Assembly: GCA_959605945.1 (NCBI GenBank)
Contig: CAUHGY010000001.1
Location: 3,413-67,412, forward strand
Source of the DNA: an uncultured Clostridia bacterium
Lineage (GTDB): Bacteria > Bacillota > Clostridia > Christensenellales > Borkfalkiaceae
Direction of reading: 5' to 3'
DNA length: 64,000 nt
Both the position numbers and the translations under genes were made by a program. Shown piece by piece: positions 7,214 to 52,089 of this stretch. The first letter of the stretch is position 1. Each line of letters begins with the position of its first letter. A model generated the notes under the pieces. That model was given only the letters and a program-made list of their open reading frames with translations. It ran no database searches and was not told the origin of the DNA.

Positions 7214-7856
7214 AATTGCCCCGTCTATACTGTCGGCGGATTTTGCGCGTGCGGGCGAAGAAGTCAAAAATATTACGATAAACGGCGCAGACGTGATTCA
7301 CATCGACGTTATGGACGGCAGTTTCGTAAAAAATATTTCCTTCGGCCCCAAATTCGTAAAAGAAATAAGACCGTATTCGTCTGCCGTGTTCGACACCCAT
7401 CTGATGATAGTAAAACCGTGGAATTATATAAATCAGTTTGCCGATGCGGGTGCGGATATAATAACGGTACATTATGAAGCCTGCGGAGACAGACTTAAAG
7501 AGACTTTAAGAGCCATAAAAAATTTGGGAATCAGGTGCGGCGCCGTCATTAATCCCGATACGCCGGTCAGTGCAATAGAAAATGTAATCGATGAGTGCGA
7601 CATGCTTCTGTTGATGAGTGTTTTTCCCGGTTTCGGAGGACAGAAATTCATTCCTGAAGTTCTGAAAAAAATAGAAGAAGCGGCAGAGTTGATAGTGAAA
7701 ACCGGAAAAGATATAGATCTTGAAATTGACGGCGGAATCACTAAAGAAAATGTGAGAGCTTGCAAAAATGCCGGAGCGAACGTCATAGTGGCGGGGAGCA
7801 CGGTTTTTAATGAAAAGGACAGAGCGAAAATTATAAAAGAACTGCGCGAGATTTAA
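7200..7856 (+). CDS. rpe: Ribulose-phosphate 3-epimerase
   Basis: IHIDVMDG, MSVFPGFGGQKF, EIDGGI. RBS AAAGGAG upstream. Confidence 0.93.
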   Translation: MKKIKIAPSILSADFARAGEEVKNITINGADVIHIDVMDGSFVKNISFGPKFVKEIRPYSSAVFDTHLMIVKPWNYINQFADAGADIITVHYEACGDRLKETLRAIKNLGIRCGAVINPDTPVSAIENVIDECDMLLLMSVFPGFGGQKFIPEVLKKIEEAAELIVKTGKDIDLEIDGGITKENVRACKNAGANVIVAGSTVFNEKDRAKIIKELREI

Positions 7857-12564: not shown

Positions 12565-13761
12565 ATGAGCGTATCTAAAAAAGTAAGAGAAATTGCACCG
12601 TCTTTGACACTTGAAATTACTGCCAAAGCCAAAAAAATGAAAGCCGAAGGCATATCCGTCATCGGGTTCGGTGCTGGCGAACCCGACTTCAATACACCCG
12701 ATTACATAATAGATTCGGCTAAAAAAGCACTTGATACGGGTTTTACCAAATATACGCCGGCATCCGGAACGGCAGAGTTGAAGAAAGCGATTTGTGAGAA
12801 ATTTCTTAAAGATAACGGCTTGAAATATGATCCCGCGCAGATAGTTGTTTCTTCGGGAGCGAAGAGCTCGCTTTATCACGCGATATGCGCTATCGTGGAC
12901 GAAGGCGATGAAGTGATATTGCCGTCGCCGTACTGGCTTACTTATCCCGAGTTGATAAAACTTGCCGGCGGAACGGTAGTTTATGTTAAGGCAGAGAGAG
13001 AAAACGGTTATAAAATGACTGCGTCTCAGCTTGAAAAAGCAATTACTCCGAAAACGAAATGCCTTATACTTAACAGCCCTAATAATCCGACCGGTGCGGT
13101 TTACACCGAATCTGAATTAAAGGCTATTGCGGCTGTTGTCGAGAAAGCGGGAATCTACGTCGTTTCCGACGAGATTTATGAAAAACTTGTTTACGGGGGC
13201 GAAAAACACTGTTCCATTGCGTCTTTCGGCAGTTATATGAAAGACCATACGGTGATAGTCAACGGCATGTCCAAAACATATTCCATGACGGGTTGGCGCA
13301 TAGGTTACCTTGCAGCGCCCGTTGATATCGCCAAAGCGGTGTCCGGTATGCAGAGTCATACCACAAGCAACGCTTGTTCCATTGCGCAGTACGCATCCGT
13401 AGCCGCCCTTTGCGATCCGGAAGGCGAAATATTCATTGCAAAAATGCAGAAGGTATTCGATGAAAGAAGAAAGTATATGGTCGAAAGACTTCAAAAAATG
13501 GATGGCGTTATTTGCATAGAACCAAAAGGCGCATTCTACGTTTTTGCCGATGTTTCCGCTCTTTACGGTAAAACCTACGAAGGCGAAAAAATTACGGGTT
13601 CTCTCTCTTTTGCCGATTGTGCGCTGAAGAAAGGGGTTGCTCTTATTCCCGGCATTGCTTTCGGTGACGATAATTGCATAAGGCTTTCTTACGCTATATC
13701 AATAGAAGACATAAAAGAAGGGCTGGACAGACTGGATAAATTTATCAAGGAGCTGAAATAA
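12565..13761 (+). CDS. Aspartate aminotransferase-type class I PLP aminotransferase
   Basis: NSPNNPTG, SKTYSMTGWRIGY (PLP lysine). RBS AAAGGAG. Confidence 0.85.
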   Translation: MSVSKKVREIAPSLTLEITAKAKKMKAEGISVIGFGAGEPDFNTPDYIIDSAKKALDTGFTKYTPASGTAELKKAICEKFLKDNGLKYDPAQIVVSSGAKSSLYHAICAIVDEGDEVILPSPYWLTYPELIKLAGGTVVYVKAERENGYKMTASQLEKAITPKTKCLILNSPNNPTGAVYTESELKAIAAVVEKAGIYVVSDEIYEKLVYGGEKHCSIASFGSYMKDHTVIVNGMSKTYSMTGWRIGYLAAPVDIAKAVSGMQSHTTSNACSIAQYASVAALCDPEGEIFIAKMQKVFDERRKYMVERLQKMDGVICIEPKGAFYVFADVSALYGKTYEGEKITGSLSFADCALKKGVALIPGIAFGDDNCIRLSYAISIEDIKEGLDRLDKFIKELK

Positions 13762-13762
13762 T

Positions 13763-15154
13763 ATGATCGAAAGAAATAAAAAAACCAATCTTCTTGAAGA
13801 AAAATATTACAGTTATAGCCTGCAGGATGTCGAGAAGCCGCAATTATTCAGAGATATTTTCGATTATGAAAGCGTTCCGAAAGTTATATTCAACGAGCGC
13901 CACGTGCCTATGTCGATGCCGGATGAAATTTGGATAACCGATACTACTTTTCGTGACGGGCAGCAATCAACTTCGCCGTTTACAGTCGGGCAGATTGTGG
14001 AAATTTTCAAATTAATGTCAAGATTGGGCGGCAAAAAGGGAATAATCCGTCAGTCTGAATTCTTTTTATATTCGGATAAGGACAGGCAGGCTGTCAGAGC
14101 ATGTCAGGAACTCGGCCTTGAATTTCCCGAAGTTACAAGTTGGATACGTGCCAATAAAAAAGATTTTCAGCTTGTAAAAGAAATGGGACTAAAAGAGACA
14201 GGGGTGCTTGTAAGCTGTTCGGACTATCATATCTTCAAAAAAATGAATCTCACCCGCGCTCAGGCACTTGATAAATATCTCGGCATCGTGAAAGATGCGC
14301 TTGACGCCGGGATAAGGCCGAGATGCCATTTTGAAGATATCACAAGAGCGGACTTTTACGGTTTTGTGGTGCCGTTTGCAAGCGAGCTTATGAAGCTTTC
14401 AAAAGAGAGCAAAATGCCTATAAAAATCCGTGCCTGCGACACAATGGGGTTTGGCGTAAATTATGTGGGAGCGGCGCTTCCGAGAAGTGTTCCGGGCATT
14501 ATTTACGGGCTGCATCATTATGCGGAAGTTCCCAGCGAACTGCTTGAATGGCACGGACATAACGATTTTTATAAGGTCGTCACTAATGCTGCCACAGCTT
14601 GGCTATACGGCTGCGCCGCAGTTAACTGTTCTCTCCTCGGAATCGGCGAGAGGACGGGAAACTGCCCGCTTGAAGCTATGGCAATAGAATACGCATCATT
14701 GAAAGGAACTGACGACGGAATGGATTTTACGGCAATTACCGATATTGCCAATTATTTTGAAAACGAGGTCGGATACGTAATTCCTCCGCGGACGCCTTTT
14801 GTGGGCAGAGCGTTCAATTCCACCCGTGCCGGTATTCATGCGGACGGCATGTTGAAAGACGAAGAGATATATAATATTTTCGACACGTCGAAATTACTTA
14901 ACCGTCCTATGCGCGTTTCTATCAATAATACAAGCGGACTTGCCGGGATAGCGTATTGGATAAATCAATATTATGAGCTTCCCAAGGATCACCGTATAGA
15001 AAAAACACATGAGATAGTTGCGAAAATCAAAGTTTTGATCGATAAAGAATATGAAAACGGGCGCTGCAGCGTAATGGGTGACGACGAACTTGACGCCATG
15101 ATCATGATGTGCGATAAGGAACTGCATAAAAAATTATTGATTTTCGCAGGTTAA
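13763..15154 (+). CDS. DRE-TIM metallolyase of the homocitrate synthase / Re-citrate synthase type
   Basis: Intact catalytic motifs DTTFRDGQQS and HGHNDFY. About 460 aa with no LeuA C-terminal regulatory domain. Assignment to the Re-citrate synthase subtype is from family knowledge plus the adjacent oxaloacetate-forming aminotransferase, and is not proven. Confidence 0.6.
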   Translation: MIERNKKTNLLEEKYYSYSLQDVEKPQLFRDIFDYESVPKVIFNERHVPMSMPDEIWITDTTFRDGQQSTSPFTVGQIVEIFKLMSRLGGKKGIIRQSEFFLYSDKDRQAVRACQELGLEFPEVTSWIRANKKDFQLVKEMGLKETGVLVSCSDYHIFKKMNLTRAQALDKYLGIVKDALDAGIRPRCHFEDITRADFYGFVVPFASELMKLSKESKMPIKIRACDTMGFGVNYVGAALPRSVPGIIYGLHHYAEVPSELLEWHGHNDFYKVVTNAATAWLYGCAAVNCSLLGIGERTGNCPLEAMAIEYASLKGTDDGMDFTAITDIANYFENEVGYVIPPRTPFVGRAFNSTRAGIHADGMLKDEEIYNIFDTSKLLNRPMRVSINNTSGLAGIAYWINQYYELPKDHRIEKTHEIVAKIKVLIDKEYENGRCSVMGDDELDAMIMMCDKELHKKLLIFAG

Positions 15155-26452: not shown

Positions 26453-26481
26453 TTGACATTGAAAAATTAAAATGATAAAAT
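26453..26481 (+). promoter_or_regulatory. Sigma-70-type promoter of T-box operon 1
   Basis: TTGACA (26453-26458), 17-nt spacer ending in TGA, TAAAAT (26476-26481). Confidence 0.65.
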
Positions 26482-26494
26482 ATGACAAAATAAA

Positions 26495-26747
26495 AACGAT
26501 GACGAAGAGTACCCGTTCTAAAAATTTTTCAGAGAGACGGCGGCGGGTGAAAGCCGTTAAAATGTTTGTTCGGGTTTGTAGCTTCCGAGTTGGGAGAAAG
26601 AAAGCTTTCTGCGAGTAGAATTTCCCCGTGCTGACGCGTTAAGTCATAAGGATTGATAGATCCTGAGAGGCAGATTTATCTGCAATTTGAGTGGTACCGC
26701 GGATATTTATTATCCGTCTCAAAGTTATTTTTGAGACGGATTTTTTT
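26495..26747 (+). promoter_or_regulatory. T-box riboswitch leader 1 (transcription attenuation type), putative specifier GUA (Val)
   Basis: K-turn (AAC-GAU-GA...GA-GUU), S-turn AGUA, AG bulge AGAGA, distal loop GGCGGGUGAAA, stem III GCAGAU/AUCUGC, T-box sequence AAUUUGAGUGGUACCGCGG (26684-26702). Terminator CCGTCTCAAA/TTTGAGACGG plus T7 (26714-26747) is mutually exclusive with the antiterminator GAG-UGGUACC-GCGGAUA...UAUCCGU-CUC. Confidence 0.88.
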
Positions 26748-26766
26748 ATCCGTCGAGGAGGTATAA

Positions 26767-28500
26767 ATGCAAAATATTGCCCGCAACAAAGCAGAAAATC
26801 TCAGTTTTTCAAAAATTCTTACTGACAAAAAGAATATGCTCTGCGATAATTTTTATGACAATCAACATAATTGGGTTTACGATAAATTTATAGACGCCGA
26901 AGTCGATCAAAACGGAACTCCCGTATCGGTGACTTTTAAAAATGAAGATAAGTTTAATTTTGCATTTGACATAGTCGATGAACTTGCAGACCGTTATCCG
27001 GATAAACCGGCGCTTCTGCACGTTACCGAAGACGGCGTTGAAACCAGATTTTCATTCCGGGATATGAAGGAACTTTCAGCCCGAGCTGCGAATTATTTCA
27101 AAGCGATCGGGATAAAAAAAGGCGACAGAGTAATGTTGGTTCTCGGAAGGCGTTATCAGTTCTGGTACGCGATGTTGGGCCTTCATAAAATCGGGGCGAT
27201 AGCGCTTCCTGCAATGTGCCAGCTTTTAGAGCATGATTTCGAGTACAGATTTAATTCGGCGGGAGTGTGTGCCGTTATATGTACCGACGGCGGTGACGTC
27301 GCCCTTCACGCTGAACGCGCTGCCGAAAATTGTCCGTGCGTAAAATATAAGTTTATAGTAGGGGCCGAACGAGACGGCTGGCGCAGCTTTGACAGCGAAA
27401 TTTTTAAATATTCGCCTGTTTATGAAAGATCGGAAAATTCGCCTTGCGGGAAAGACATAATGCTGATGTTTTTCACTTCCGGTACAACCGGCTATCCTAA
27501 AATAGCTGCACACAATTACAAATATGCACTCGGGCATTTCCACACTGCCAAATACTGGCATTGCGTGCAGCGTGACGGTCTTCACTTCACTATTTCCGAC
27601 ACCGGTTGGGCAAAAGCCATGTGGGGGAAATTCTACGGTCAATGGATATGCGAATCTGCAATTTTTGTATATGATTTCGATAGATTCAATGCGGCAGATA
27701 TCCTTTCGTTGTTTGCAAAATATAAGATAACCACTTTTTGTGCGCCGCCGACGATGTTGAGAATGATGGTTAAAGAAAATCTCGGAAAATACGATTTATC
27801 ATCCGTAAAACATATGTCGACAGCGGGAGAAGCTCTGAACCCCGAAGTTTACCGCAAGTTTGAAAGTGCAACCGGACTGAAGATTATGGAAGGATTCGGT
27901 CAGACCGAAACGACGATGGTTATAGGCAATATGGCAGGGGCGCCGCACAAGATAGGATCTATGGGCAAACCGGCGCCGATTTATAAAGTAGAACTTTTGA
28001 ATTCCGACGGCAAAAAGGTTGCAGACGGAGAAGCCGGCGAAATAGTTATCAACGTCAAAAACGGTGCTCCGTGCGGATTGTTTTGCGGATATTATAACGA
28101 TAAGGAAAAAACAGACGAAGTATGGCATAACGGTTATTACCATACAGGCGACATGGCATGGAAAGACGAAAGCGGATTTTACTGGTATGTCGGCAGAGCG
28201 GATGACGTCATAAAATCGTCGGGCTACAGAATAGGTCCTTTTGAAATTGAGAGCGTGATAATGGAATTGCCCTACGTTCTTGAATGCGGAGTATCGCCTT
28301 ACCCCGATGAAGTGCGCGGACAGATAGTAAAGGCCAGTGTCGTTTTGACTGCAGGTACAGAGCCTACCGACCAATTGAAAAAAGAAATTCAAAACTATGT
28401 CAAGACGCACACGGCGCCTTATAAATATCCGAGAATAGTGGAGTTTAAAAAAGAACTGCCTAAAACGGTAAGTGGGAAAATACAGAGAAGCAAACTTTAA
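26767..28500 (+). CDS. AMP-forming acyl-CoA synthetase, medium-chain (ACSM-like) subfamily
   Basis: Adenylate-forming motifs FFTSGTTGYPK, EGFGQTET, YHTGD, GRADDVIKSSGYRIGPFEIE, PKTVSGKIQR. GGAGG RBS. Confidence 0.85.
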   Translation: MQNIARNKAENLSFSKILTDKKNMLCDNFYDNQHNWVYDKFIDAEVDQNGTPVSVTFKNEDKFNFAFDIVDELADRYPDKPALLHVTEDGVETRFSFRDMKELSARAANYFKAIGIKKGDRVMLVLGRRYQFWYAMLGLHKIGAIALPAMCQLLEHDFEYRFNSAGVCAVICTDGGDVALHAERAAENCPCVKYKFIVGAERDGWRSFDSEIFKYSPVYERSENSPCGKDIMLMFFTSGTTGYPKIAAHNYKYALGHFHTAKYWHCVQRDGLHFTISDTGWAKAMWGKFYGQWICESAIFVYDFDRFNAADILSLFAKYKITTFCAPPTMLRMMVKENLGKYDLSSVKHMSTAGEALNPEVYRKFESATGLKIMEGFGQTETTMVIGNMAGAPHKIGSMGKPAPIYKVELLNSDGKKVADGEAGEIVINVKNGAPCGLFCGYYNDKEKTDEVWHNGYYHTGDMAWKDESGFYWYVGRADDVIKSSGYRIGPFEIESVIMELPYVLECGVSPYPDEVRGQIVKASVVLTAGTEPTDQLKKEIQNYVKTHTAPYKYPRIVEFKKELPKTVSGKIQRSKL

Positions 28501-28515
28501 TCAGGAGTGGTTTTT

Positions 28516-29316
28516 ATGGAAATAATAGACGCTCACGCACATATTTATCCGCAGAAAATAGCCGCGAAAGCGACTGAGGCTATAGGTGATTTTTACGATA
28601 TAACCATGGAGATGCCTGCAGGCACACCAGAAAAACTTATAGAAATAGGTGCTTCCGCGGGAATAAGCGGTTATCTGGTTCATTCAGTGGCGACCAAAGC
28701 AGGGCAAGTTAAATCCATAAACGATTTTATCATCGAAGAGACCCGTCTTCACAGAGAATTTATCGGATTCATGACTTTGCATCAGGACATGTCGGAAGAA
28801 GAAATATTTTCCGAAATAGAACGTTGCAAAGCTGCGGGGCTGAGAGGCATAAAATTGCATCCGGATTTTCAGAAATTTTATATTGACGGTAAAGATGCGG
28901 AAAAATTTTACCGCGCGCTTTCAATGATTAACGGCGTTTTTCCCGTTCTTTTTCATACCGGAGACAACAGATATGAATTTTCGCGCCCGGAAAGGTTGGC
29001 CAAAGTAGCTGCAAAATATAAAAAACTATATTTTATTGGTGCTCATTTCGGCGGTTACCGATGCTGGGACGATGCGTGGGTATATAAGGGGCTTGATAAC
29101 GTTTATTTTGATACAAGCTCATCTCTTCCGTTTATTTCATCGGAAAGAGCGCGTGAAATTATAGACATGCTTGGTTATGAAAAGTTTTTTTTCGGCGACG
29201 ATTTTCCCATGTGGGATGCAAAAAAAGAACTTGAAAGATTTTTTAAACTAAAACTGTCGGAGAAACAGAATTCTGCCATATTATCCGGAAATTTAAAAAA
29301 TTTACTGGAATTATAA
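28516..29316 (+). CDS. Metal-dependent TIM-barrel amidohydrolase (PF04909-like)
   Basis: N-terminal IIDAHAHIYP (HxH), GIKLHPD, FHTG, GAHFGG, YFDTS, FGDDFPMW. The ATG at 28516 has a GGAG 8 nt upstream. Confidence 0.7.
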   Translation: MEIIDAHAHIYPQKIAAKATEAIGDFYDITMEMPAGTPEKLIEIGASAGISGYLVHSVATKAGQVKSINDFIIEETRLHREFIGFMTLHQDMSEEEIFSEIERCKAAGLRGIKLHPDFQKFYIDGKDAEKFYRALSMINGVFPVLFHTGDNRYEFSRPERLAKVAAKYKKLYFIGAHFGGYRCWDDAWVYKGLDNVYFDTSSSLPFISSERAREIIDMLGYEKFFFGDDFPMWDAKKELERFFKLKLSEKQNSAILSGNLKNLLEL

Positions 29317-29363: not shown

Positions 29364-29384
29364 ATATAAAAATTATCATATAAA

Positions 29385-29638
29385 TGCAGTGATGGAAAAT
29401 ACTCGTCAAATTGCGTTTCAGAGAGCCGGCGGCAGGTGAAAGCCGGTATCGCGTTGATGCGTTCTCGTTCCGGAGCAGGAGTTGCGAAAACCGAGATTAC
29501 GTTTTATCAGGTAATATTTGTCGATAGTTACTCCCGGCGGCGCCGTTATACGTTTAAATGAGAGATTGCATATCGCAATAATATGGGTGGTACCGCGGTC
29601 ATTCCGTCCCTGACTTATAAAAAGTCAGGGATTTTTTT
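29385..29638 (+). promoter_or_regulatory. T-box riboswitch leader 2 (transcription attenuation type), putative specifier CUC (Leu)
   Basis: K-turn (UGC-AGU-GA...GA-GCA), AG bulge AGAGA, distal loop GGCAGGUGAAA, stem III AUUGC/GCAAU, T-box AUAUGGGUGGUACCGCGG (29581-29598). Terminator CCCTGACTT/AAGTCAGGG plus T7 (29608-29638) competes with the antiterminator GGG-UGGUACC-GCGG...CCGU-CCC. Confidence 0.88.
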
Positions 29639-29670: not shown

Positions 29671-31080
29671 ATGAAGGAAATAATTGTTAGCGACGTAACG
29701 CTTAAAGAATTAAACCGATCGGACGTTTTGTCGCTCGGGTTTAAAGAGAAGCTGGAGATAGCAAAAAAAATAAGCGAACTTTCCGTAGACGTTATCGAAC
29801 TGTTTCCCGCAGCAGGAAATAAAGCGGATGAAATATTGGTCAAGACCATTTCCGCTTGCATAAATAACAGAATAATTGCCTGTACGGCAGGTTATACCGA
29901 AAACGATCTTAAAAACAATTACGCGCTTATAAGCGGAGCGAAAAATAAACGCATCATAATAAGCATTCCGGTTTCGCCCGTGCAGATAGAATATGTTTTA
30001 AACAAAAAGCCTCAAGCAGTATTGGATTTGCTTGCAGAGCTCACCGAAAAAGCTGCGGAGCTTTGTTCGGATGTGGAAGTCTCGCTCGAAGACGCTACGC
30101 GCGCCGAAACGTCTTTTTTGCAACAGGCACTAAAAACGGCAATCTGCCGCGGAGCTAAAACCGTTACTCTGACAGATGCTGCGGGGCAGATGCTTCCGTC
30201 TGAATTCAAGGAATTCTTAGAGGATATGTATAATGCGGTGCCCGAACTGAAAGACGTGAAACTTGCGGTAATGATTTCCGATGCATATTCTATGGCAAAC
30301 GCCGGCCTTTTTAATGCGGTTGCCGCAGGCGCTGCCGAAGTAAAGGTCTCGGCCGTTGCAAGCCTCGGCGTTGCCAAAACCGAAAATTTCATAAGATCTA
30401 TGGAAACTATCGGCGTTAAAAAAGGCTATGCATGCAACCTGAACAAGACCGGTGCAATGCGAATAATAAAGCAAATAGCTCAAATCGCTGCGGAAAAAAG
30501 CGCTTATACGGCATTCGGCAGCGTAGTTGGCGAAAAAAATGAAGATATAGATAAAAACGTTTCCGAAGTAGAACTCAGCGAAATAATACAGCGGTTAGGT
30601 TATGATCTTGCGCCTGAAGATATTAAAAAGGTTTATTCTGAATTTTCTCTTCTTGCCGAGAAAAAGCAAGTCGGCATAAAGGAACTTGATGCCATAATCG
30701 CGAATACCGCGTTGCAAGTTCCCGCAACTTATTCCATCGAAAATTTTTCTGTCAGCATAAACAATACAGGCGCGGCCATGGCAGGAGTGACTCTTTTGTC
30801 GGACGGTAAACTCACGAGCGGCCTGTCTTACGGCAACGGCTCCATCGACGCGGCTTTTCTGGCTATAGAAAACATAACGGGAAGGCATTTCGATCTTGAC
30901 GATTTTGAAGTTACGGCAGTTACCGAAGGGAAGGAAGCCATGGGGCAGACGGTGATTAAACTCCGCAGCGGCGGAAAACTTTATTCCGGCCGCGGTATAT
31001 CAACCGATATAGTCGGTGCAAGCATAAAAGCTTATGTAAACGCACTCAACAAAATAGTATATGAGGAACAGCACAGATGA
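29671..31080 (+). CDS. 2-isopropylmalate synthase (LeuA) homolog with a degenerate catalytic barrel and a conserved LeuA-dimer/regulatory domain
   Basis: Aligns by eye with LeuA along its full length (EDATR retained). RDGEQ is replaced by KELNR (res 12-16), HxH by M-I-S (res 201-203), and HESGIH is absent. The C-terminal GNGSIDAAFLAIENITG...VTEGKEAMGQ...GRGISTDIVGASIKAYVNALNK is highly LeuA-like. Confidence 0.75.
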   Translation: MKEIIVSDVTLKELNRSDVLSLGFKEKLEIAKKISELSVDVIELFPAAGNKADEILVKTISACINNRIIACTAGYTENDLKNNYALISGAKNKRIIISIPVSPVQIEYVLNKKPQAVLDLLAELTEKAAELCSDVEVSLEDATRAETSFLQQALKTAICRGAKTVTLTDAAGQMLPSEFKEFLEDMYNAVPELKDVKLAVMISDAYSMANAGLFNAVAAGAAEVKVSAVASLGVAKTENFIRSMETIGVKKGYACNLNKTGAMRIIKQIAQIAAEKSAYTAFGSVVGEKNEDIDKNVSEVELSEIIQRLGYDLAPEDIKKVYSEFSLLAEKKQVGIKELDAIIANTALQVPATYSIENFSVSINNTGAAMAGVTLLSDGKLTSGLSYGNGSIDAAFLAIENITGRHFDLDDFEVTAVTEGKEAMGQTVIKLRSGGKLYSGRGISTDIVGASIKAYVNALNKIVYEEQHR

Positions 31081-33590
31081 AACTTTCTTTTTCGACTAAC
31101 GGATGGAATCTGGGATTTTCCCAGCTCGTCAGATTATGCGGCGAAAATAAGATTTCGGGGCTTGAAATACACGATGTGGATTCGCCTTGTTTTCAAAAAG
31201 AGAATCCTTTCGGAAAAAATAATCTGCCAAAAACAAAAAGAATTCTTTTTGAAAGCGGAATAAGCATTTCTTGCCTTGATTCGGTCGGTAACTTCGCTAA
31301 TTTTTCTGCCGAAGAAGAGAATATTGCGGAAATCGTAAAACTTATAGAACTATCAAAAGAACTCGGCTGTAAATACGTCAGACTTCACGCTTACAATATA
31401 GAGGGTTCAGAGATTTCTGCAGAAGATTGTAATTCCCGTTTGATGATAATTTTGCCGCGGCTTATAGAGTCTGCAAAGAAAAACGATGTGACGCTGCTTT
31501 TTGAATCAATGGGCATTTATGCGGATACCGCAAAACTTGCAGGATTATTGAATTCTTTTGCCAGCGATAACTTTGCGGCGCTGTGGGATATTCACCATAC
31601 TAATTTTTATGCAAAAGAAAGTCCGGAATCGTCGGTTAAAAATCTTGGAAAGCACATAAAACATCTGCACATTAAAGACAGCTCTCTGATTGGCGGAAAA
31701 CTTTCCTTTTGCCTGTTGGGTGAAGGCGATTTGCCCATAAAACAGGTATTTAACAGCCTGCGCTCTATAAATTACGAAGGGTTCGTATCGCTTGAACTTA
31801 TGCAGGAATGGTTGGAAACCATCGGCGAACCGGACATCGTTTTACCGCAGTTTGCAAGCTATATGGGAACATTCGAGAGCGTGCCTTCCTGGCAGAATAA
31901 GCTCTATGACAATAAGAGAAAGACGGGTAAATTTATATGGGAGAAAGAAACGCTTATCGAACGCACTTTTTCTCAGGTTCTTGATAAAGTAACGGAAGAA
32001 TTTCCCGACCAGATAGCTTTTAAATACACTACGCTCGATTATACCCGAACATATTCGGAATTCCGCGACGAAGTAGATATTGTTGCGAGAGCGCTGATGG
32101 CTATAGGCGTTCGTAAAGGCGACCACGTTGCGGTGTGGGCAACAAATGTTCCTGAATGGTATCTTACGTTTTGGGCGACAACCAAAATCGGCGCCGTGCT
32201 TGTTACCGTGAACACCGCTTATAAAGTACATGAGGCGGAATATCTGTTGAAACAGTCGGATACTCACACGCTGGTTATGATTAAGGGCTGGAGAGATTCC
32301 GATTACGCCGGTATAATAAACGAACTCTGTCCCGAACTGAAAGATTTGAAAAAAGGCGAATCCCTGCACGCAAAGAGACTTCCGTTTCTTCGCAATGTCG
32401 TGACGGTGGGATTCAGGCAGAAAGGGTGTCTTGAATTTTCCGAAATGATGGAGTTAGCGAAAAACGTTCCGCAGGAAAAAATGCAGATGGTTGCAAATAC
32501 CGTAGGGGTGAACGACGTCTGTAATATGCAGTATACTTCCGGTACCACGGGATTTCCTAAAGGCGTCATGCTGACGCATTATAATATTGTTAATAACGGG
32601 AAATGCATAGGCGACAGAATGGATCTTTCGACAGCCGACAGAATGATGATACAGGTTCCTATGTTCCACTGTTTCGGAATGGTACTTGCCATGACGGCGT
32701 CAATCACGCACGGAGTTTCCATATATCCGTTGCCGTATTTTTCGCCGAAGCCTGCGCTTGCATGCATAAATCAGGAGCAGATAACGTGTTTCCACGGCGT
32801 TCCGACTATGTTTATAGCTATGCTCGCCCATGACGATTTCCCGAAAACAGACTTTTCCCATATGCGTACGGGCATAATGGCGGGAAGTCCCTGTCCGGTA
32901 GCCGTAATGCAGGATGTAATAGATAAAATGCATATGACGGAGATAACTATAGTCTACGGGCAGACCGAAGCATCGCCCGGGTGCACGATGTCGAGCACGG
33001 AAGACAGTATAGAAGTCCGTGTTGAAACGGTCGGCAGACCCCTTCCGAGCATAGAATGTAAAATCGTTGATCCGGAAACCAACAGAGAAGTGCCTGATAA
33101 CACGGTCGGAGAGTTTGTTGCACGCGGTTATAACCTTATGAAAGGCTATTATAAAATGCCTAACGAGACGGCAAAAGCAATAGACTCGGAAGGGTGGCTG
33201 CACACAGGCGACCTTGCTCTCAGAATGCCGGACGGCAATTTCCGAATAACCGGCAGACTTAAGGATATGATAATCCGTGGCGGGGAGAATCTTTATCCGA
33301 AAGAAATAGAAGATTTTCTCTATACTCACCCAAAGGTGTCGGACGTGCAGGTTGTCGGCGTGCCTGACGAAAAATACGGTGAAGAGGCGTATGCCTATGT
33401 AATTCTGAAAGAGGGCGAAACCCTTACGGAAAATGAATTGCGCGAATATTGCGTAGCAAGCATTGCAAAACATAAAGTACCGAGATATTTTGATTTTGTA
33501 AGCAGTTTTCCGATGAACGTCGCAGGGAAAATATTGAAATATAAAATGCGGGAAGACGCTGCGGAAAAAATAAAGAATTTAAAAAAATAA
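31077..33590 (+). CDS. Fusion: xylose-isomerase-like TIM barrel (sugar phosphate isomerase/epimerase family) plus AMP-dependent acyl-CoA ligase (FadD-like)
   Basis: Residues 1 to ~270 show the PF01261-type pattern (LFES, WDIHH, HLHIKD, GEGDLP, GFVSLEL). Residues ~290-837 have YTSGTTGFPKGVMLTH, YGQTE, GWLHTGDLA, GRLKDMIIRGGENLYPKEIE, GKILK. Single ORF with an ATGA overlap with the upstream gene. Confidence 0.8.
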   Translation: MKLSFSTNGWNLGFSQLVRLCGENKISGLEIHDVDSPCFQKENPFGKNNLPKTKRILFESGISISCLDSVGNFANFSAEEENIAEIVKLIELSKELGCKYVRLHAYNIEGSEISAEDCNSRLMIILPRLIESAKKNDVTLLFESMGIYADTAKLAGLLNSFASDNFAALWDIHHTNFYAKESPESSVKNLGKHIKHLHIKDSSLIGGKLSFCLLGEGDLPIKQVFNSLRSINYEGFVSLELMQEWLETIGEPDIVLPQFASYMGTFESVPSWQNKLYDNKRKTGKFIWEKETLIERTFSQVLDKVTEEFPDQIAFKYTTLDYTRTYSEFRDEVDIVARALMAIGVRKGDHVAVWATNVPEWYLTFWATTKIGAVLVTVNTAYKVHEAEYLLKQSDTHTLVMIKGWRDSDYAGIINELCPELKDLKKGESLHAKRLPFLRNVVTVGFRQKGCLEFSEMMELAKNVPQEKMQMVANTVGVNDVCNMQYTSGTTGFPKGVMLTHYNIVNNGKCIGDRMDLSTADRMMIQVPMFHCFGMVLAMTASITHGVSIYPLPYFSPKPALACINQEQITCFHGVPTMFIAMLAHDDFPKTDFSHMRTGIMAGSPCPVAVMQDVIDKMHMTEITIVYGQTEASPGCTMSSTEDSIEVRVETVGRPLPSIECKIVDPETNREVPDNTVGEFVARGYNLMKGYYKMPNETAKAIDSEGWLHTGDLALRMPDGNFRITGRLKDMIIRGGENLYPKEIEDFLYTHPKVSDVQVVGVPDEKYGEEAYAYVILKEGETLTENELREYCVASIAKHKVPRYFDFVSSFPMNVAGKILKYKMREDAAEKIKNLKK

Positions 33591-33603
33591 AAGGAGAACG
33601 GTC

Positions 33604-34668
33604 ATGGAGATAAAAATACAGAAAGCCGAAAAACTGAAAGAAAAACCCGATTTTTCGAATCTGGGTTTCGGTAAATATTTTACCGATCATATGTTTGTTA
33701 TGGATTATTCGGACAAGGAAGGCTGGCACGACGCGAGAATAATTCCTTTCGGGTATATTCCGATTCATCCTGCAAGTACCGTACTGCACTACGGTGCGGA
33801 AATATTTGAGGGTATGAAGGCATATAAGACCGAAGACGGTTATCAGATGTTCAGACCTTATGAAAATGCAAAGCGTTTCAACAATTCCGCAGAGAGAATG
33901 TGTTTGCCGCAGATTGACGAGGAATTATTCGTTAAATCGATAACCGAGCTTATAAACATCGATTACAGCTGGATTCCCGACTCCGAAGGCGCATCGCTTT
34001 ATATTCGCCCCTTCATGTTCGGAAATGACGAAAGCCTTGGAGTTCACGCTGTTCACAATGCGACTTATGTTGTCATTCTTTCGCCGGTCGGAAGCTATTA
34101 TAAAGAAGGTCTGAATCCCGTGAAAATCACTATAGAAGATGAAGACGTGAGAGCAGTCCGCGGCGGTACAGGCTATGCAAAGTGCGGCGGCAATTATGCG
34201 GCCAGCATGCGTGCGGGGCAGCGCGCCGAGAAAAAAGGTTTTACTCAGGTGCTTTGGCTTGACGGCGTGGAAAGAAAATATATCGAAGAAGTCGGCGCCA
34301 TGAACGTTATGTTCAAAATAGACGGGGAAATCGTTACTCCCAAACTTACGGGATCGGTTCTTCCCGGCATAACGAGAAAATCTTGCATTGAAATGCTCAG
34401 AAGCTGGGGTTATAATGTTAATGAAAGATTGTTGTCTGTCGACGAACTTATAGGCGCTGCCGAAAACGGAAAGCTTGAAGAAGCCTGGGGAACAGGCACG
34501 GCTGCAGTGGTTTCTCCCATAGGATTGCTGTCGTATAAAGGCAAAGATCACGTGGTGTCGCAAAATAAAATAGGCGCGCTTACGCAGAAACTTTATGATG
34601 AGCTTACGGGAATGCAGTGGGGTAAAAAACCCGATGCTTTCGGCTGGTGTTATAAGGTAAAAATTTGA
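33604..34668 (+). CDS. ilvE: Branched-chain amino acid aminotransferase (fold-type IV, long form)
   Basis: 354 aa. Typical IlvE blocks FGKYFTDHMF, LHYGAEIFEGMKAY, YIRPFMFG, GGTGYAKCGGNYA, EVGAMNVMF, VLPGITR, GTAAVVSPI. Confidence 0.9.
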   Translation: MEIKIQKAEKLKEKPDFSNLGFGKYFTDHMFVMDYSDKEGWHDARIIPFGYIPIHPASTVLHYGAEIFEGMKAYKTEDGYQMFRPYENAKRFNNSAERMCLPQIDEELFVKSITELINIDYSWIPDSEGASLYIRPFMFGNDESLGVHAVHNATYVVILSPVGSYYKEGLNPVKITIEDEDVRAVRGGTGYAKCGGNYAASMRAGQRAEKKGFTQVLWLDGVERKYIEEVGAMNVMFKIDGEIVTPKLTGSVLPGITRKSCIEMLRSWGYNVNERLLSVDELIGAAENGKLEEAWGTGTAAVVSPIGLLSYKGKDHVVSQNKIGALTQKLYDELTGMQWGKKPDAFGWCYKVKI

Positions 34669-35336
34669 TGAACGCAAAACGGATAACGCTGTTTGCCGGG
34701 CACTACGGCAGCGGCAAAACCAATGTGGCGGTAAACTTTGCGTGCAGCCTTGCGAAAGACGGTAAGAGAACGGTAATTTACGATCTCGATATAGTAAATC
34801 CGTATTTCAGGACGATAGACGCGAAAAAATTTCTCGACGAATGCGGCGTTGAACTTGTTGTATCGCCGTACGCCGAAACTAATGTGGATATACCGGCAAT
34901 GAATGCCGCGTCTTACCGTATGGTGGACGATCTTGAAAGTTATGCCGTCGTGGATATCGGGGGCGACGACCGCGGTGCGTATGCACTCGGCAGATTTTCC
35001 GAAAAGATAAAAGCCGAAAATAATTATGATATGCTGCTTGTAATCAACAGATTTCGCCCTGAAACACGTACTGTTGAAAACCTTGCGGAAATTAAAGACG
35101 AAATAGAAAGAGCAGCGAAAATAAAATTTACGGGTATTGTGGATAATTCCAATCTCGGAGCCGAAACAACGCTGGAAACGATTGAAGAAAACAGGGCTTT
35201 TGCCCTTGAATCGTCGGAAAAATTCATGTTACCTGTTGTGTTTACTTCGATAAACAGCGAGCTGTTAAAAAATCGAAAAAATATCAGAGAAGACATATTG
35301 CCCGTCAGTTTGATAAAGTACGGCGATTGGCAATAG
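34668..35336 (+). CDS. P-loop NTPase of unknown function (SIMIBI-like)
   Basis: Walker A GHYGSGKT near the N-terminus and a Walker-B-like VVDIGGDD. TGATG overlap with the ilvE stop. Sits immediately upstream of the OFOR genes. Confidence 0.55.
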   Translation: MNAKRITLFAGHYGSGKTNVAVNFACSLAKDGKRTVIYDLDIVNPYFRTIDAKKFLDECGVELVVSPYAETNVDIPAMNAASYRMVDDLESYAVVDIGGDDRGAYALGRFSEKIKAENNYDMLLVINRFRPETRTVENLAEIKDEIERAAKIKFTGIVDNSNLGAETTLETIEENRAFALESSEKFMLPVVFTSINSELLKNRKNIREDILPVSLIKYGDWQ

Positions 35337-35346
35337 AGGAGAAAAA

Positions 35347-35553
35347 ATGGCGAAAGTTACTTTTAACGTTGAACGCTGCAAGGGATGCGGACTGTGTGAA
35401 ATGGTTTGTCCGAAACATATTATTTCTCTTGCACAGGAAAAGATTAACACGAAGGGCTATCATCCTGCTGAAGTTACAGATGCAAATAAGTGCATAGGGT
35501 GCGCATTTTGCGCCACTATGTGTCCGGACAGCGTAATTACGGTGGAAAAATAG
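35347..35553 (+). CDS. 2-oxoacid:ferredoxin oxidoreductase delta subunit (2x[4Fe-4S] ferredoxin)
   Basis: CKGCGLCEMVCP and CIGCAFCATMCP. 68 aa. Positioned before the alpha subunit. Confidence 0.85.
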   Translation: MAKVTFNVERCKGCGLCEMVCPKHIISLAQEKINTKGYHPAEVTDANKCIGCAFCATMCPDSVITVEK

Positions 35554-35562
35554 AGGTGAAAT

Positions 35563-36633
35563 ATGTCAGATAAAGTTTTAATGAAAGGAAACGAGGCGCT
35601 GGCAGAAGCTGCCATTATGGCGGGATGCAGATATTATTTCGGCTATCCTATAACTCCGCAGACCGAAGTCGCCGCATATATGTCAAGACGCATGCCTAAA
35701 ATCGGCGGAACGTTCTTGCAGGCGGAATCGGAAATTGCCGCTATCAACATGGTTATAGGCGTATCGTCATGCGGAAAACGCGTCATGACGTCGAGTTCAA
35801 GTCCAGGAATATCTTTAAAAAGCGAAGGCATTTCTTATCTTGCCGGCTGTGAACTTCCCGCACTGATCGTAAATGTGCAGAGAGGAGGTCCGGGGCTCGG
35901 TGGAATTCAACCTTCTCAGTCAGACTATTTCCAGGCAACAAAAGGCGGCGGGCACGGAGACTATAAACTTATAGTTCTTGCACCGGCCTCCATCCAGGAA
36001 ATGGTCGACCTTACATTCAAAGGTTTTGACCTTGCGGATAAATACAGAATGCAGACCATGATTCTTGCGGACGGAACTATGGGGCAGATGATGGAGCCGG
36101 TAAGCTTAAATCTCGGCGAAGTGAAAGAATACGATAAAAGTTGGGCTACGACGGGAACGGCTAACCACGACGGCAGAAACGTAGTGAATTCACTCTCGCT
36201 TTCGCCTGCGCAGCTTGAAGAATGGAATATTTCGAGATACGAAAGATATAAAATAGTCGAACGCGACGAGGTTATGTTTGAAGAATTCATGATGGATGAT
36301 GCCGATTATTGCATAGTTGCATTCGGAATAGCCGCAAGAATTTCCAAAAACGCTATTCTCGAAGCGAGAAAACAAGGTCTTAAAGCGGGAATGATCCGTC
36401 CTATTACTTTATGGCCGTTCCCCAAAAACGTTCTCAAAAAAGCGGCAGAAAAAGTCAAGGCGTTTTTATCGGTCGAACTCAATATGGGGCAGATGATCGA
36501 TGATGTGAAACTTGCCGTTGAATGTTCAAAACCCGTTTATCTTTGCAACCGCACCGGCGGAATGCTTGTTTCCCCGCAGGAAGTGCTTGATAAACTTAAA
36601 GAAATTGACAAAGGAGAAGCAAAACAATGGTAG
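35563..36633 (+). CDS. vorB: 2-oxoacid:ferredoxin oxidoreductase alpha subunit, VorB-like
   Basis: LMKGNEALAEAAIMAGCRYYFGYPITPQTE, QAESEIAAINM, SSSSPGISL, RGGPGLGGIQPSQSDYFQATKGGGHGDY. Substrate assignment rests on context only. Confidence 0.8.
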   Translation: MSDKVLMKGNEALAEAAIMAGCRYYFGYPITPQTEVAAYMSRRMPKIGGTFLQAESEIAAINMVIGVSSCGKRVMTSSSSPGISLKSEGISYLAGCELPALIVNVQRGGPGLGGIQPSQSDYFQATKGGGHGDYKLIVLAPASIQEMVDLTFKGFDLADKYRMQTMILADGTMGQMMEPVSLNLGEVKEYDKSWATTGTANHDGRNVVNSLSLSPAQLEEWNISRYERYKIVERDEVMFEEFMMDDADYCIVAFGIAARISKNAILEARKQGLKAGMIRPITLWPFPKNVLKKAAEKVKAFLSVELNMGQMIDDVKLAVECSKPVYLCNRTGGMLVSPQEVLDKLKEIDKGEAKQW

Positions 36634-37373
36634 TTTTCGGAAAAACAAAGGGACTTACCGATAATCCGTTGCATTATTGTCCGGGTTGTACGCATGGTAT
36701 AATTCACAGACTTGTGGCGGAAGTTCTCGAAGAACTCGGCGTGCTCGGAAAAACGGTCGGAGTTGCGTCGGTAGGATGTTCGGTCTTTTCCTATAATTAT
36801 TTTAATTGCGATATGATACAGGCGGCTCACGGAAGAGCGCCGGCCGTTGCGACAGGGGCCAAAAGAGCAAATCCCGACAACATAGTTTTTACCTATCAGG
36901 GTGACGGCGATCTCGCTGCGATAGGTACGGCTGAAACCGTTCATTCGGCTGCCCGCAACGAAAATATAACGGTGATTTTTGTCAACAACGCCATTTACGG
37001 CATGACCGGCGGACAGATGGCGCCTACCACGCTTCCGAATCAGGTCACTCAGACTTCGCCTTACGGCAGAGATGTCACAGTGGTAGGTTACCCTGTAAAG
37101 GTATGTGAGATGCTTTCTCAGGTCGACGGTGCATCTTATCTCGAACGCGTGGCAGTAAACAATATCGCTAATATCAGGAAAGCTAAAAAAGCTATTTATC
37201 ACGCTTTTAAAAATCAGATGGAAGGTAAAGGATTTTCTCTTATAGAAGTTCTTTCAACATGTCCCACCAACTGGGGGCTTTCTCCTAAGGAAGCAATAAA
37301 ATGGCTTGACGACAATCTTGAAACTTATTATCCTCTCGGAGTATATAAGGACAAATACAAGGAGGAAAAGTAA
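36627..37373 (+). CDS. vorA: 2-oxoacid:ferredoxin oxidoreductase beta subunit (TPP-binding)
   Basis: YCPGCTHG, GDGD...NNAIYGMTGGQ (TPP/Mg motif). Overlaps the alpha-subunit gene. Confidence 0.85.
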   Translation: MVVFGKTKGLTDNPLHYCPGCTHGIIHRLVAEVLEELGVLGKTVGVASVGCSVFSYNYFNCDMIQAAHGRAPAVATGAKRANPDNIVFTYQGDGDLAAIGTAETVHSAARNENITVIFVNNAIYGMTGGQMAPTTLPNQVTQTSPYGRDVTVVGYPVKVCEMLSQVDGASYLERVAVNNIANIRKAKKAIYHAFKNQMEGKGFSLIEVLSTCPTNWGLSPKEAIKWLDDNLETYYPLGVYKDKYKEEK

Positions 37374-37913
37374 ATGGCAAAAACCACCAAGATTCTGATT
37401 GCCGGTTTCGGCGGACAGGGGATTCTGTTTGCGGGAAAAGCCTTGGCGTATACCGGGCTTAAAGCCGACATGGAAGTCAGCTGGCTTCCTTCTTACGGCC
37501 CCGAAATGCGCGGGGGAACGGCAAATTGCAGCGTGACGCTTTCAGATACTGCTATCGGATCTCCTATAGTCGATAAACCCGATATTCTGATAGCTATGAA
37601 TCTGCCTTCGCTTGAAAAATATTTTTACGAAACGGAAAAAGGCGGATACATTATATTCGACAGTTCACTGATTATCAAGCAGGATACCAGAGACGATGTT
37701 ATCACCGTTGGTATTCCTGCGACAAAGATGGCAAGTGATAACGGGCTTGATGGACTGGCGAATATGATAATGTTGGGTAAGGTAATCAAAGAAACCGGCA
37801 TCCTTACATTAGAACAGGTAAAAAACAGTCTATCGCAAATGGTTCCGGCTAAAAAGGCGGACCTTTTACAAAAAAATATCAAGGCGATAGAATTGGGTTA
37901 TAATTTTCAATAG
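37374..37913 (+). CDS. 2-oxoacid:ferredoxin oxidoreductase gamma subunit
   Basis: [29 protein letters not shown]. The start abuts the beta-subunit stop. Confidence 0.85.
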
Positions 37914-37922
37914 GGGGTTATT

Positions 37923-38474
37923 ATGAAAGAGCAGTTGAAGGCAATGGGCCAAAGGCTTACGGAGTTAAGGGAAATAAACGGCGTTTCTGTCAAAGAAATT
38001 GCCGAAAGACTCAAAATGACCGAAGAAGAATATACCGCATATGAAAACGGCGACAGAGATTTTTCTTTCAGTTTCATGTTTAATGTTGCCACGATTTTCG
38101 GTGTTGACGTATTCAATCTGCTTTCAGGTAACTCTCCTAAATTGAGCGATTGCGCTGTAGTAAGGAAAGGGCAGGAATTTTTTATTAAAAAGGAAGGCTC
38201 ATATAACTACAAACATCTCGCTTATACGTTTAAGAATAAAAAAGCGGAACCGTTTTTCGTCGTGAGTATGCCGGGCGAGGAAGATACTGACCTTCACAGC
38301 CATGAAGGACAGGAATTTAATTTCGTTCTTTCCGGCAGCATGCTTTTCAAGATCGGAGATATGTCGTACGAATTGAATAAAGGCGACAGCGTTTATTTCA
38401 ATTCGTCGCTCAAACACGGCATAAAAGTGCTCGGCGACAAACCCGTTAAATTTCTTGCAGTCGTAATGAAATAA
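37923..38474 (+). CDS. XRE-family HTH plus cupin-domain transcriptional regulator
   Basis: N-terminal HTH (LTELREINGVSVKEIAERLKMTEEEYTAYENG). C-terminal cupin (HSHEGQEFNFVLSG...GDSVYFNSSLKHG). Confidence 0.8.
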   Translation: MKEQLKAMGQRLTELREINGVSVKEIAERLKMTEEEYTAYENGDRDFSFSFMFNVATIFGVDVFNLLSGNSPKLSDCAVVRKGQEFFIKKEGSYNYKHLAYTFKNKKAEPFFVVSMPGEEDTDLHSHEGQEFNFVLSGSMLFKIGDMSYELNKGDSVYFNSSLKHGIKVLGDKPVKFLAVVMK

Positions 38475-38502
38475 TTCAATTGACGCCGTTACGGAGTTAA
38501 AT

Positions 38503-40197
38503 ATGGTTATTTACGAAAAATATACGGGAAGAAACAGGGATTCATTTAAAGATTTAAAAGATTTAAGAGAAAACTTCAAAATAACGTACGGCGAAGATTT
38601 TAACTTTGCCTATGACGTGATGGATGTGTTGGCAAAAGAAAAACCGGACAAACTTGCCATGCTTTGGCTTTCCGATAAGAAAGAAGAAAAGCGTTTTACT
38701 TTTGCCGATATGAAATATTGGTCGGATAAAACCGCATGCTATCTCAAGAGCATGGGCATAAAGAAAGGGGACAAGGTCCTGCTTGTACTGAAGCGCAGCT
38801 ATTTATTTTGGTTTTGTATGCTTGCCATGCATAAAATAGGTGCGATACCCATTCAAGCGACCAATATGCTTGTGGGAAAAGACTTTACTTACCGATGTAA
38901 TAAAGCCGGTATACGTGCGGTCATCATTACCGGTGACGGCGATGTCAGCGAACATTTTGACACGGTTGAAGCTCAATGCACAACCGTAGAGATGAAATTT
39001 GTCACAAAACATAAGGATGCCGGAAAAGGCTGGATTGATTTTGAAAGCGGGCTTATGGCTGCATCGTCTGATTGGAAAAAACCTGTCGGAAAAGATGCTG
39101 TCAAAGCAAAAGACATTATGTTTATGGCGTTTTCGTCAGGCACAACGGGTTATCCCAAAATGATAATGCACGATTTTACTTATCCGTTAGGGCATATCGT
39201 GACGGGATTGTTCTGGCATCGCGTGGAAGACGGAGGACTTCACTTCACTATATCCGACACGGGGTGGCTGAAATCGCTTTGGGGTAAATTTTATGGACAA
39301 TGGTTCGGCGAATCGGCAATACTCGTGTACGATTTCAATAAATTTGACGGGGCCGATATATTGGATGTGCTGTCAAAATATAAAGTCACCACTTTCTGTG
39401 TTCCGCCTACCATGTATAGATTTATGCTGCAAAACGACGTCAAATCTTACGACCTGTCATCGCTTAAACATTGTTGTTCTGCGGGAGAGGCCCTCAATGC
39501 GGATATTTTTAACAAGTGGAAAGATGCTACCGGGTTGGAAATATACGAGGGATTCGGTCAGACCGAAACGACGCTTTGTCTCGGCACTCTTTACGGTTTT
39601 TCAAAGCCGATTTCGGGTTTTATAGGCAAACCCGTTGCGGGATACGATTTAATGGTGGCGGGAAAAGACGGTAAAGAATGTCTTCCCGGCGAAGCCGGAG
39701 AAATCTGCATAAAAGCAAGTCCGGAAAACAAACCGTGCGGTTTGATGTGCGGTTATTATAACGACGAAGAGTCAACTGCGTACAGTTGGCGCGGCGGGTG
39801 TTTCCATACGGGCGACACCGCATATGTAGACGAATACGGCAACTATAAATATATCGGTCGTAACGATGACGTCATAAAGTCGTCAGGATACCGCATCGGA
39901 CCTTTCGAAGTGGAAAGCGTTCTCATGGAACATCCCGCGGTTCTCGAAGTGGCCGTTACCGGAGTGCCTGACGAAAAAAGAGGTTTCAGCGTAAAGGCAA
40001 CGATAGTTCTTAAAAAAGGTTATGTTCCGAGCAGCGAGCTTGTTGTTGAGCTTCAAAATTACGTCAAAACAAACACGGCGCCTTATAAATATCCGCGAGT
40101 GGTGGAATTTGTAGAATCACTTCCAAAAACTATCAGCGGCAAAATAAGACGTACTGAAATACGTGAGAATGACATGTTGAAATACGGAAAAAAATAA
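38503..40197 (+). CDS. AMP-forming acyl-CoA synthetase, ACSM-like (paralog of 26767-28500)
   Basis: FSSGTTGYPK, EGFGQTET, FHTGD, GRNDDVIKSSGYRIGPFEVE, PKTISGKIRR. Roughly half the residues are identical to the first ligase by eye. Confidence 0.85.
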   Translation: MVIYEKYTGRNRDSFKDLKDLRENFKITYGEDFNFAYDVMDVLAKEKPDKLAMLWLSDKKEEKRFTFADMKYWSDKTACYLKSMGIKKGDKVLLVLKRSYLFWFCMLAMHKIGAIPIQATNMLVGKDFTYRCNKAGIRAVIITGDGDVSEHFDTVEAQCTTVEMKFVTKHKDAGKGWIDFESGLMAASSDWKKPVGKDAVKAKDIMFMAFSSGTTGYPKMIMHDFTYPLGHIVTGLFWHRVEDGGLHFTISDTGWLKSLWGKFYGQWFGESAILVYDFNKFDGADILDVLSKYKVTTFCVPPTMYRFMLQNDVKSYDLSSLKHCCSAGEALNADIFNKWKDATGLEIYEGFGQTETTLCLGTLYGFSKPISGFIGKPVAGYDLMVAGKDGKECLPGEAGEICIKASPENKPCGLMCGYYNDEESTAYSWRGGCFHTGDTAYVDEYGNYKYIGRNDDVIKSSGYRIGPFEVESVLMEHPAVLEVAVTGVPDEKRGFSVKATIVLKKGYVPSSELVVELQNYVKTNTAPYKYPRVVEFVESLPKTISGKIRRTEIRENDMLKYGKK

Positions 40198-51603: not shown

Positions 51604-52089
51604 ATTGTTAAATGAATCAAATAATTTCTCGATTTATTTTTATGAATATTTTTTGCACTTATTAGAATAATTTTATTGTAATTCAAAGCGTTTTGCGGTA
51701 TGAATATGTCTGGCATAATAAGTTTTAAATATTTTAATTCCGGGAATAAACGAGTGCCGGCTGTTAATTGATATGTTATTTTTATAAACTGTTTTCAAAG
51801 ATAGCCGAAAATTTTTTATATCAAAGACAGCGTTTTTTATAAAAAATGTCGAACATTAATACAAATTATAAAAGTAAAAAGATATATTAAATATTTGACA
51901 AGGATAAATTTCAAAGTTTATAATGTATTAAAAAGAAAAAACCCGTACTTTTGATTAAAAAGAATCAAAATTTTTTTGCAATATTTGCGGTTTTTCCTTT
52001 TCTAAAAGCGCTTACGCATCGGAGATTATATTTAGTTTTTTCCGATACAGCGGTTTTATGATTACAGTCATTTATAAAGGAGAATATTG

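Follow-up and report, generated by a model that had tools for sequence, protein, structure and literature searches.

A valine-type T-box leader in front of a predicted branched-chain acyl-CoA ligase in uncultured Clostridia

Why would a leader RNA that responds to uncharged tRNA stand in front of an acyl-CoA ligase and an amidohydrolase? The question is raised by a locus of an uncultured Clostridia bacterium of the Borkfalkiaceae (GCA_959605945.1), in which a stretch of 64,000 nucleotides (contig CAUHGY010000001.1, positions 3,413 to 67,412 of the forward strand) was analyzed. We call this stretch the window, and coordinates given without a locus name are positions in it. An earlier note on this DNA had read a complete T-box attenuator with a likely valine specifier and had called the control of an AMP-forming fatty-acid ligase and an amidohydrolase unusual. 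Known T-box leaders (RF00230), among them those of Bacillus subtilis tyrS, glyQS, valS and ilv-leu, share with the present one the K-turn, specifier loop and AG bulge/distal loop of stem I, followed by stem II, stem IIA/B, stem III, the T-box sequence with its UGGN bulge and the competing antiterminator and terminator. They differ in the target, which is here an acyl-CoA synthetase of a putative salvage-type route and belongs neither to the aminoacyl-tRNA synthetases nor to the canonical biosynthetic genes or the transporters, and in the 3' S-turn motif, GUU here and GAA in theirs.

The Rfam covariance model of the T-box family matches positions 26490..26724 on the plus strand with 116.1 bits (E 5.5e-25), exceeding the gathering score of 93 and covering model positions 1-219 of 219. 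Such a match is far outside chance, and the element is a genuine and complete T-box. Upstream, also on the plus strand, a sigma-70-type promoter with an extended TG (TTGACA-17 nt-TAAAAT, 26453..26481) is recognized by consensus match only, with 11 of 12 positions matching. Stem I (26496..26591), like all parts of the leader on the plus strand, contains the K-turn, with GAUGA (26498-502) opposite GAG (26587-89), the lower helix GAAG (26504-07)/CUUC (26582-85), the AG bulge AGAGA (26531-35) and the distal loop (26542-52), as placed by the model alignment and, for the stem and its lower helix, also by the sequence itself. Both AGAGA (26531-35) and GCGGGUGAAAG match the consensus AGAGA...GgUUGGUGaaAg in this alignment, showing that the elements of the tRNA-elbow platform are present. 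The region of stem II, stem IIA/B and stem III follows at 26592..26683, and the stem II and stem III hairpins were recovered in a free fold too.

The T-box sequence and antiterminator occupy 26684..26724 according to model alignment and fold, with the conserved T-box sequence AAUUUGAGUGGUACCGCG at 26684-701. Two helices, 26686-91/26718-23 and 26699-705/26711-17, enclose the bulge UGGUACC (26692-98), and the whole antiterminator (26686-26723) folds at -12.1 kcal/mol (z -3.05). An intrinsic terminator (26712..26748), with a 13-bp stem (26712-41), a 4-nt loop and seven U, reaches -20.8 kcal/mol against the -12.1 kcal/mol of the antiterminator. The arm 26712-23 is common to both folds, being the 5' arm of the terminator and the 3' arm of the antiterminator, so they are mutually exclusive. 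With promoter, full-length RF00230 match and competing structures all present, the region 26490-26748 is the complete transcription-attenuation T-box that the earlier note had described, and the RNA itself is an ordinary member of its family.

Within the specifier loop, the codon GUA (Val) is found at 26578..26580 on the plus strand (model positions 90-92), followed by the purine G at 26581. The Rfam model aligns G-U-U-U-G-U-A-G to the consensus G-A-A-a-u-u-c-a, the last G taking the place of the conserved purine just before CUUC. The earlier note, which had reached GUA by folding stem I by hand, had named exactly such a covariance-model alignment as a possible refutation; the alignment gives the same triplet. 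A check against the sequence found every coordinate of the hand fold to be correct, namely AAC (26495-97), GAUGA (26498-502), GAAG (26504-07)/CUUC (26582-85), AGUA (26508-11), CCCG (26512-15)/CGGG (26571-74), UUUGUAG (26575-81) and UGGU (26692-95). In the Rfam model, the upper helix is two bases out of step with that fold, and the 3' half of the S-turn has GUU in place of the consensus GAA, the only respect in which the specifier loop departs from the canonical form. Neither the shift nor the GUU changes the placement of the codon.

The genes under control are, as had been read before, an AMP-forming ligase and an Amidohydro_2 protein. The ligase gene, here lig1, is found at 26767..28500 on the plus strand, encodes 577 aa and is preceded by the ribosome-binding site GAGGAGG (26755-61, plus strand). 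The protein contains the AMP-binding (PF00501, E 2.1e-63) and AMP-binding_C (PF13193, E 9.6e-20) domains. By its domains and matches it is an acyl-CoA synthetase of the ANL superfamily and not a long-chain fatty-acid ligase, and the former label of fatty-acid ligase gives way to that of a short branched-chain acyl-CoA synthetase of MacsMa/MbcS type, as indicated by Pfam, NCBIfam and PDB matches. The best NCBIfam match is MbcS (NF047394), with 429.8 bits and E 1.4e-128, below the equivalog cut-off of 850; judged by this score, lig1 is related to MbcS and is no orthologue of it. The closest solved structure is MacsMa of Methanosarcina acetivorans (PDB 3ETC, E 1.5e-184, residues 61-575 aligned), which shares with lig1 an N-terminal extension and a critical Trp (W264 in lig1, by alignment). 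MacsMa is archaeal and has no reported T-box, whereas lig1 is bacterial and lies behind one. In MacsMa this Trp is critical for acyl binding and the preferred substrate is 2-methylbutyrate (PMC10455477). MbcS of Staphylococcus aureus is selective for isobutyrate and 2-methylbutyrate and poor on isovalerate (PMC10026030), and it feeds fatty-acid synthesis with no reported T-box control, unlike lig1 behind its Val T-box.

To place lig1 among its relatives, 80 loci were taken from more than 590 found in GTDB species representatives encoding a 68-74% identical ligase. The carriers are mostly metagenome-assembled genomes (MAGs) of gut and rumen Clostridia (Acutalibacteraceae, Oscillospiraceae, Saccharofermentans, Christensenellaceae), many of them from ruminants, with assemblies made from faecal, caecal and rumen samples. 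Still closer relatives of the ligase are 99% (P0001, on a contig of 2.5 kb) and 86% (P0002, GCA_964317965.1, syntenic) identical. Upstream sequence of 1 kb or more was available for 77 loci, and in these a T-box precedes the orthologous ligase with the specifier GUA in 72 and GUC in one. In the remaining 4 (L050, L063, L069 and L074), no T-box was found by an Rfam rescan at E 0.001; the ligase genes of L050 and L069 lie within longer operons, and L063 has been binned as Spirochaetaceae. The target was rightly called unusual with respect to textbook T-box regulons, but it is not peculiar to this genome, being kept in more than 70 species.

In 38 loci, the Val T-box has some 2.6 kb upstream of it a second T-box with the specifier AUC (Ile) before a paralogous ligase, and 14 T-boxes, including the second one of the window, have CUC or CUG (Leu), with a leuA-like gene next wherever the locus extends far enough. 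In a neighbor-joining tree, all 73 ligase domains behind Val T-boxes fall in one clade, the enzyme of the window included, with no Ile-type member among them. The two classes differ cleanly at four alignment columns, where Val-class enzymes have A282, M285, M384 and G387 and Ile-class enzymes G, L, L and A; the ligase of the window has the Val-class residue at all four. From the clade and these residues, lig1 is most likely an isobutyrate-CoA ligase. Against this assignment stand the preference of its closest solved relative, MacsMa, for 2-methylbutyrate and the MbcS score of 430 against 850. MacsMa has the Ile-class G and A at the columns where lig1 has A282 and G387, and the Val-class residue at none of the four, which would fit the use of 2-methylbutyrate as an isoleucine precursor.

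By their sequences, the Val and Ile leaders are paralogous. In L022, the Ile (2397-2645) and Val (5035-5278) leaders share an almost identical stretch of about 90 nt in the 3' half, their differences being concentrated in stem I and the specifier. Gene conversion between Val and Ile leaders was considered and found no support: the 3' halves of the two average about 80% identity across 37 genomes, but Val leaders of different genomes are equally similar. In L083 (~6820-7350), two T-box expression platforms stand in tandem before a leuA-like gene, with cores at 7032 and 7277, and the second appears to have no recognizable stem I.

The second T-box leader of the window (29380..29614, plus strand, Rfam 99 bits) has the specifier CUC (Leu) at 29464-66. 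Behind it lies a tightly packed operon of about 10.5 kb with almost no intergenic gaps (29671..40197), encoding in this order a leuA-like protein, a fusion of AP_endonuc_2 and a ligase (31077-33590), IlvE (33604-34668, NCBIfam 474 bits against a cut-off of 307), a cbiA-like protein, the small ferredoxin VorD (35347-35553), VorB (35563-36633, NCBIfam 542 bits against a cut-off of 399), VorA (36627-37373), VorC (37374-37913), an HTH-cupin protein and a second Macs-like ligase (38503-40197), all on the plus strand. The ligase, a 2-ketoisovalerate:ferredoxin oxidoreductase (VOR) and a branched-chain aminotransferase are therefore encoded together in the window, and the identical set occurs in relatives. 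The gene order seen most often there behind the Val T-box is ligase, cbiA-like gene, (vorD), vorB, vorA, vorC and ilvE, and at least 30 related genomes have a Val T-box operon that runs on into vorDBAC and ilvE. Besides those of the T-boxes, no strong promoter or terminator was found inside the ligase-to-ilvE stretch of L008. In the window itself, the Val T-box heads just the ligase and Amidohydro_2 genes, while VOR and IlvE follow the Leu T-box. Lack of valine by itself would therefore induce no more than ligase and amidohydrolase, barring read-through or an internal promoter.

With VOR and IlvE nearby, a ligase makes metabolic sense as the target of a T-box. AMP-forming ligases work from the acid towards the CoA ester, and an anabolic role agrees with induction by uncharged tRNA. 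Isobutyrate is plentiful in gut and rumen, and 2-keto-acid:ferredoxin oxidoreductases are reversible. For a ligase, a reversible oxidoreductase and a transaminase that are all induced by uncharged tRNA, only one direction fits, from acid to acyl-CoA, keto acid and amino acid. We consider it likely that a tRNA-Val T-box induces here a ligase that activates isobutyrate for the resynthesis of valine through VOR and IlvE. When valine is scarce, the anticodon of uncharged tRNA-Val would pair with GUA in the specifier loop, and its ACCA-3' end with UGGU of the antiterminator bulge. The antiterminator would then prevail over the terminator, and the RNA polymerase would continue into the ligase gene. 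The ligase would convert isobutyrate to isobutyryl-CoA, VorDBAC, acting in the direction that we infer, would form 2-ketoisovalerate by reductive carboxylation, and IlvE would yield valine by transamination. The same chemistry, from branched acid through acyl-CoA and 2-keto acid to amino acid, is reported for rumen bacteria in work of Allison and co-workers (1966-1971; cited in PMC7356843), with isobutyrate, 2-methylbutyrate and isovalerate as the respective precursors of valine, isoleucine and leucine. That work, as represented there, is physiological labelling, whereas here genes and regulation are read from sequence.

The same Val-specific switch could also serve membrane lipids, with the ligase supplying isobutyryl-CoA as primer for iso-even branched-chain fatty acids. 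Scarce valine would mean scarce isobutyryl-CoA derived from ketoisovalerate, and external isobutyrate would be activated in its place, as by MbcS in S. aureus. The best NCBIfam match of lig1 is to that enzyme, which has been shown to supply branched-chain fatty-acid primers (PMC10026030, PMC11167679), and the limitation of the Val T-box of the window to ligase and amidohydrolase, leaving out VOR and IlvE, points the same way. On the other hand, the Val T-box operons of the relatives, in at least 30 genomes, include vorDBAC and ilvE, needless for primer supply, and three amino-acid-specific T-boxes on three types of ligase suit the logic of amino-acid supply better. We regard a lipid role as the main purpose of the switch as rather unlikely, and the lipid and valine roles can coexist.

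A difficulty for valine resynthesis is the second gene of the operon, which has no place in the proposed pathway. It encodes a metal-dependent enzyme with an Amidohydro_2 TIM barrel (28507..29316, plus strand, PF04909), starts 7 nt downstream of the ligase and is probably co-transcribed with it. No NCBIfam match was found for the protein, and a PDB sequence search gave a weak match only. Its AF2 model (pLDDT 95.6) has as closest folds non-oxidative decarboxylases of the ACMSD family, with TM of about 0.75 and 12-17% identity. Ligase and amidohydrolase could act together on another valine-related compound, e.g. another acid, the link to VOR and IlvE being an effect of neighborhood. The pair is kept behind a GUA T-box in the closest unfused relatives, L081 (86%) and L082 (74%), L082 has neither vor nor ilvE in the 10 kb downstream of it, and a decarboxylase-like fold is not needed by the simple pathway. 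[quoted passage not shown] As the ligase clade is otherwise tied to vor and ilvE and the nearest characterized enzymes use small branched acids, we find action on a different compound improbable, and more so than the lipid role.

Both valine resynthesis and these alternatives take GUA as the codon, although another register in UUUGUAG, UGU (Cys) or UUG (Leu), would mean that a different tRNA is sensed. The register was taken from Rfam alignments and from a K-turn-anchored parse, which agree, and it is identical for eleven leaders of four loci aligned with Rfam. Across 75 orthologous leaders, G and U of the specifier are invariant (75/75 each), A is kept in 74/75, with GUC as the one exception, and a purine follows in 75/75. 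A U precedes the codon in 73/75, which makes UGU nearly as conserved as GUA, so conservation alone does not decide against UGU, and the non-canonical S-turn also counts in favor of another register. The lower helix shows compensatory changes in relatives (GAAG/CUUC, GAAA/UUUC, GGAG/CUCC and GGGG/CCUC), and only GUA-G-CUUC has the canonical spacing of codon, purine and helix. GUA is further favored by L077, where the change to GUC is synonymous in the same register and would leave a pyrimidine after UGU, and by the paralogous leaders, which have AUC and CUC at exactly the register of GUA, beside BCAA genes. In B. subtilis, GUA, AUC and CUC are the specifiers of valS, ileS and leuS. Given that the covariance model puts GUA at the codon here and in relatives, that the operon has no cysteine-related gene and that UUG is ruled out by the variability of positions -2 and -3 across the 75 leaders, we consider a different register very improbable.

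The antiterminator bulge adds nothing to this choice. It had been argued that UGGU would pair with a tRNA whose discriminator is A, as in tRNA-Val; this is true, but every leader of the parsed set, whether Val (75), Ile (40) or Leu (14), has the identical GUGGUAC, so a bulge common to the three classes gives no tRNA discrimination. No tRNA genes were found in the window, and tRNA-Val(UAC) is absent from the window and from the 60 loci scanned, in which tRNA-Val(GAC) and tRNA-Val(CAC) are the only Val tRNAs found. Genes for tRNA-Val(GAC)/(CAC), with discriminator A and encoded CCA, adjoin the ligase/vor cluster at L025 11088-11164 and L013 12110-12186.

The new element is the target gene of the T-box, not the RNA. 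It has been known for sixty years that rumen and gut anaerobes need or use branched short-chain fatty acids for valine, isoleucine and leucine. Our literature searches gave no paper that connects T-boxes with acyl-CoA ligases or VOR, an earlier mention in comparative T-box surveys being possible, and none assigning the branched-acid activating enzymes of the rumen route, or their regulation, to genes. The chances seem to us evenly balanced that Val, Ile and Leu T-boxes each control their own type of acyl-CoA ligase in several hundred gut and rumen Clostridia. The poor use of isovalerate by MbcS matches the presence of a different, FadD-like ligase in the Leu operon. If the generalization is true, the specifiers would mark three enzyme clades, in the manner of natural labels, for isobutyrate, 2-methylbutyrate and isovalerate, and the long-missing activation step of the reductive-carboxylation route to BCAA would be revealed together with its regulation. 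A T-box specifier is an independent, sequence-encoded indication of the amino acid served by each ligase, by which annotations as 'AMP-binding protein' in hundreds of uncultured Clostridia could become testable substrate predictions. The T-box regulon would be extended to a salvage route fed by the fermentation acids of neighboring microbes, which matters for cross-feeding, for the use of branched-VFA supplements in ruminant nutrition and for the prediction of amino-acid auxotrophy from MAGs.

Some further features of these loci deserve mention. The ligase of most relatives contains an N-terminal module of HTH_19 and Cupin_2, reaching about 760 aa in total (L008 5242-7626 and 1623-4034), and in the window this HTH-cupin module is a separate gene (37923-38474) in front of the second ligase. 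The arrangement suggests a regulatory layer at the protein level above the T-box, or enzymes that may be bifunctional as regulators too. An AP_endonuc_2 protein (xylose-isomerase-like TIM barrel) follows the Ile-T-box ligase in relatives (L008 4038-4964), and in the Leu operon AP_endonuc_2 forms the N-terminal part of a fusion with the FadD-like ligase; it is a recurrent partner with no obvious role in the pathway. In the window, no further T-boxes were found before the his operon, the PaaK-like ligase or the second Macs-like ligase, nor any other Rfam element upstream of the PaaK-like one. This PaaK-like ligase (AMP-binding_C_2) is encoded near a class I/II aminotransferase (52087-53388 and 54695-55888), and the two may form an analogous route from arylacetate to aromatic amino acids. 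Another class I/II aminotransferase gene (12565-13761) adjoins that of an HMGL-like protein with no LeuA dimerisation domain (13763-15154), which may be a citramalate or homocitrate-type synthase.
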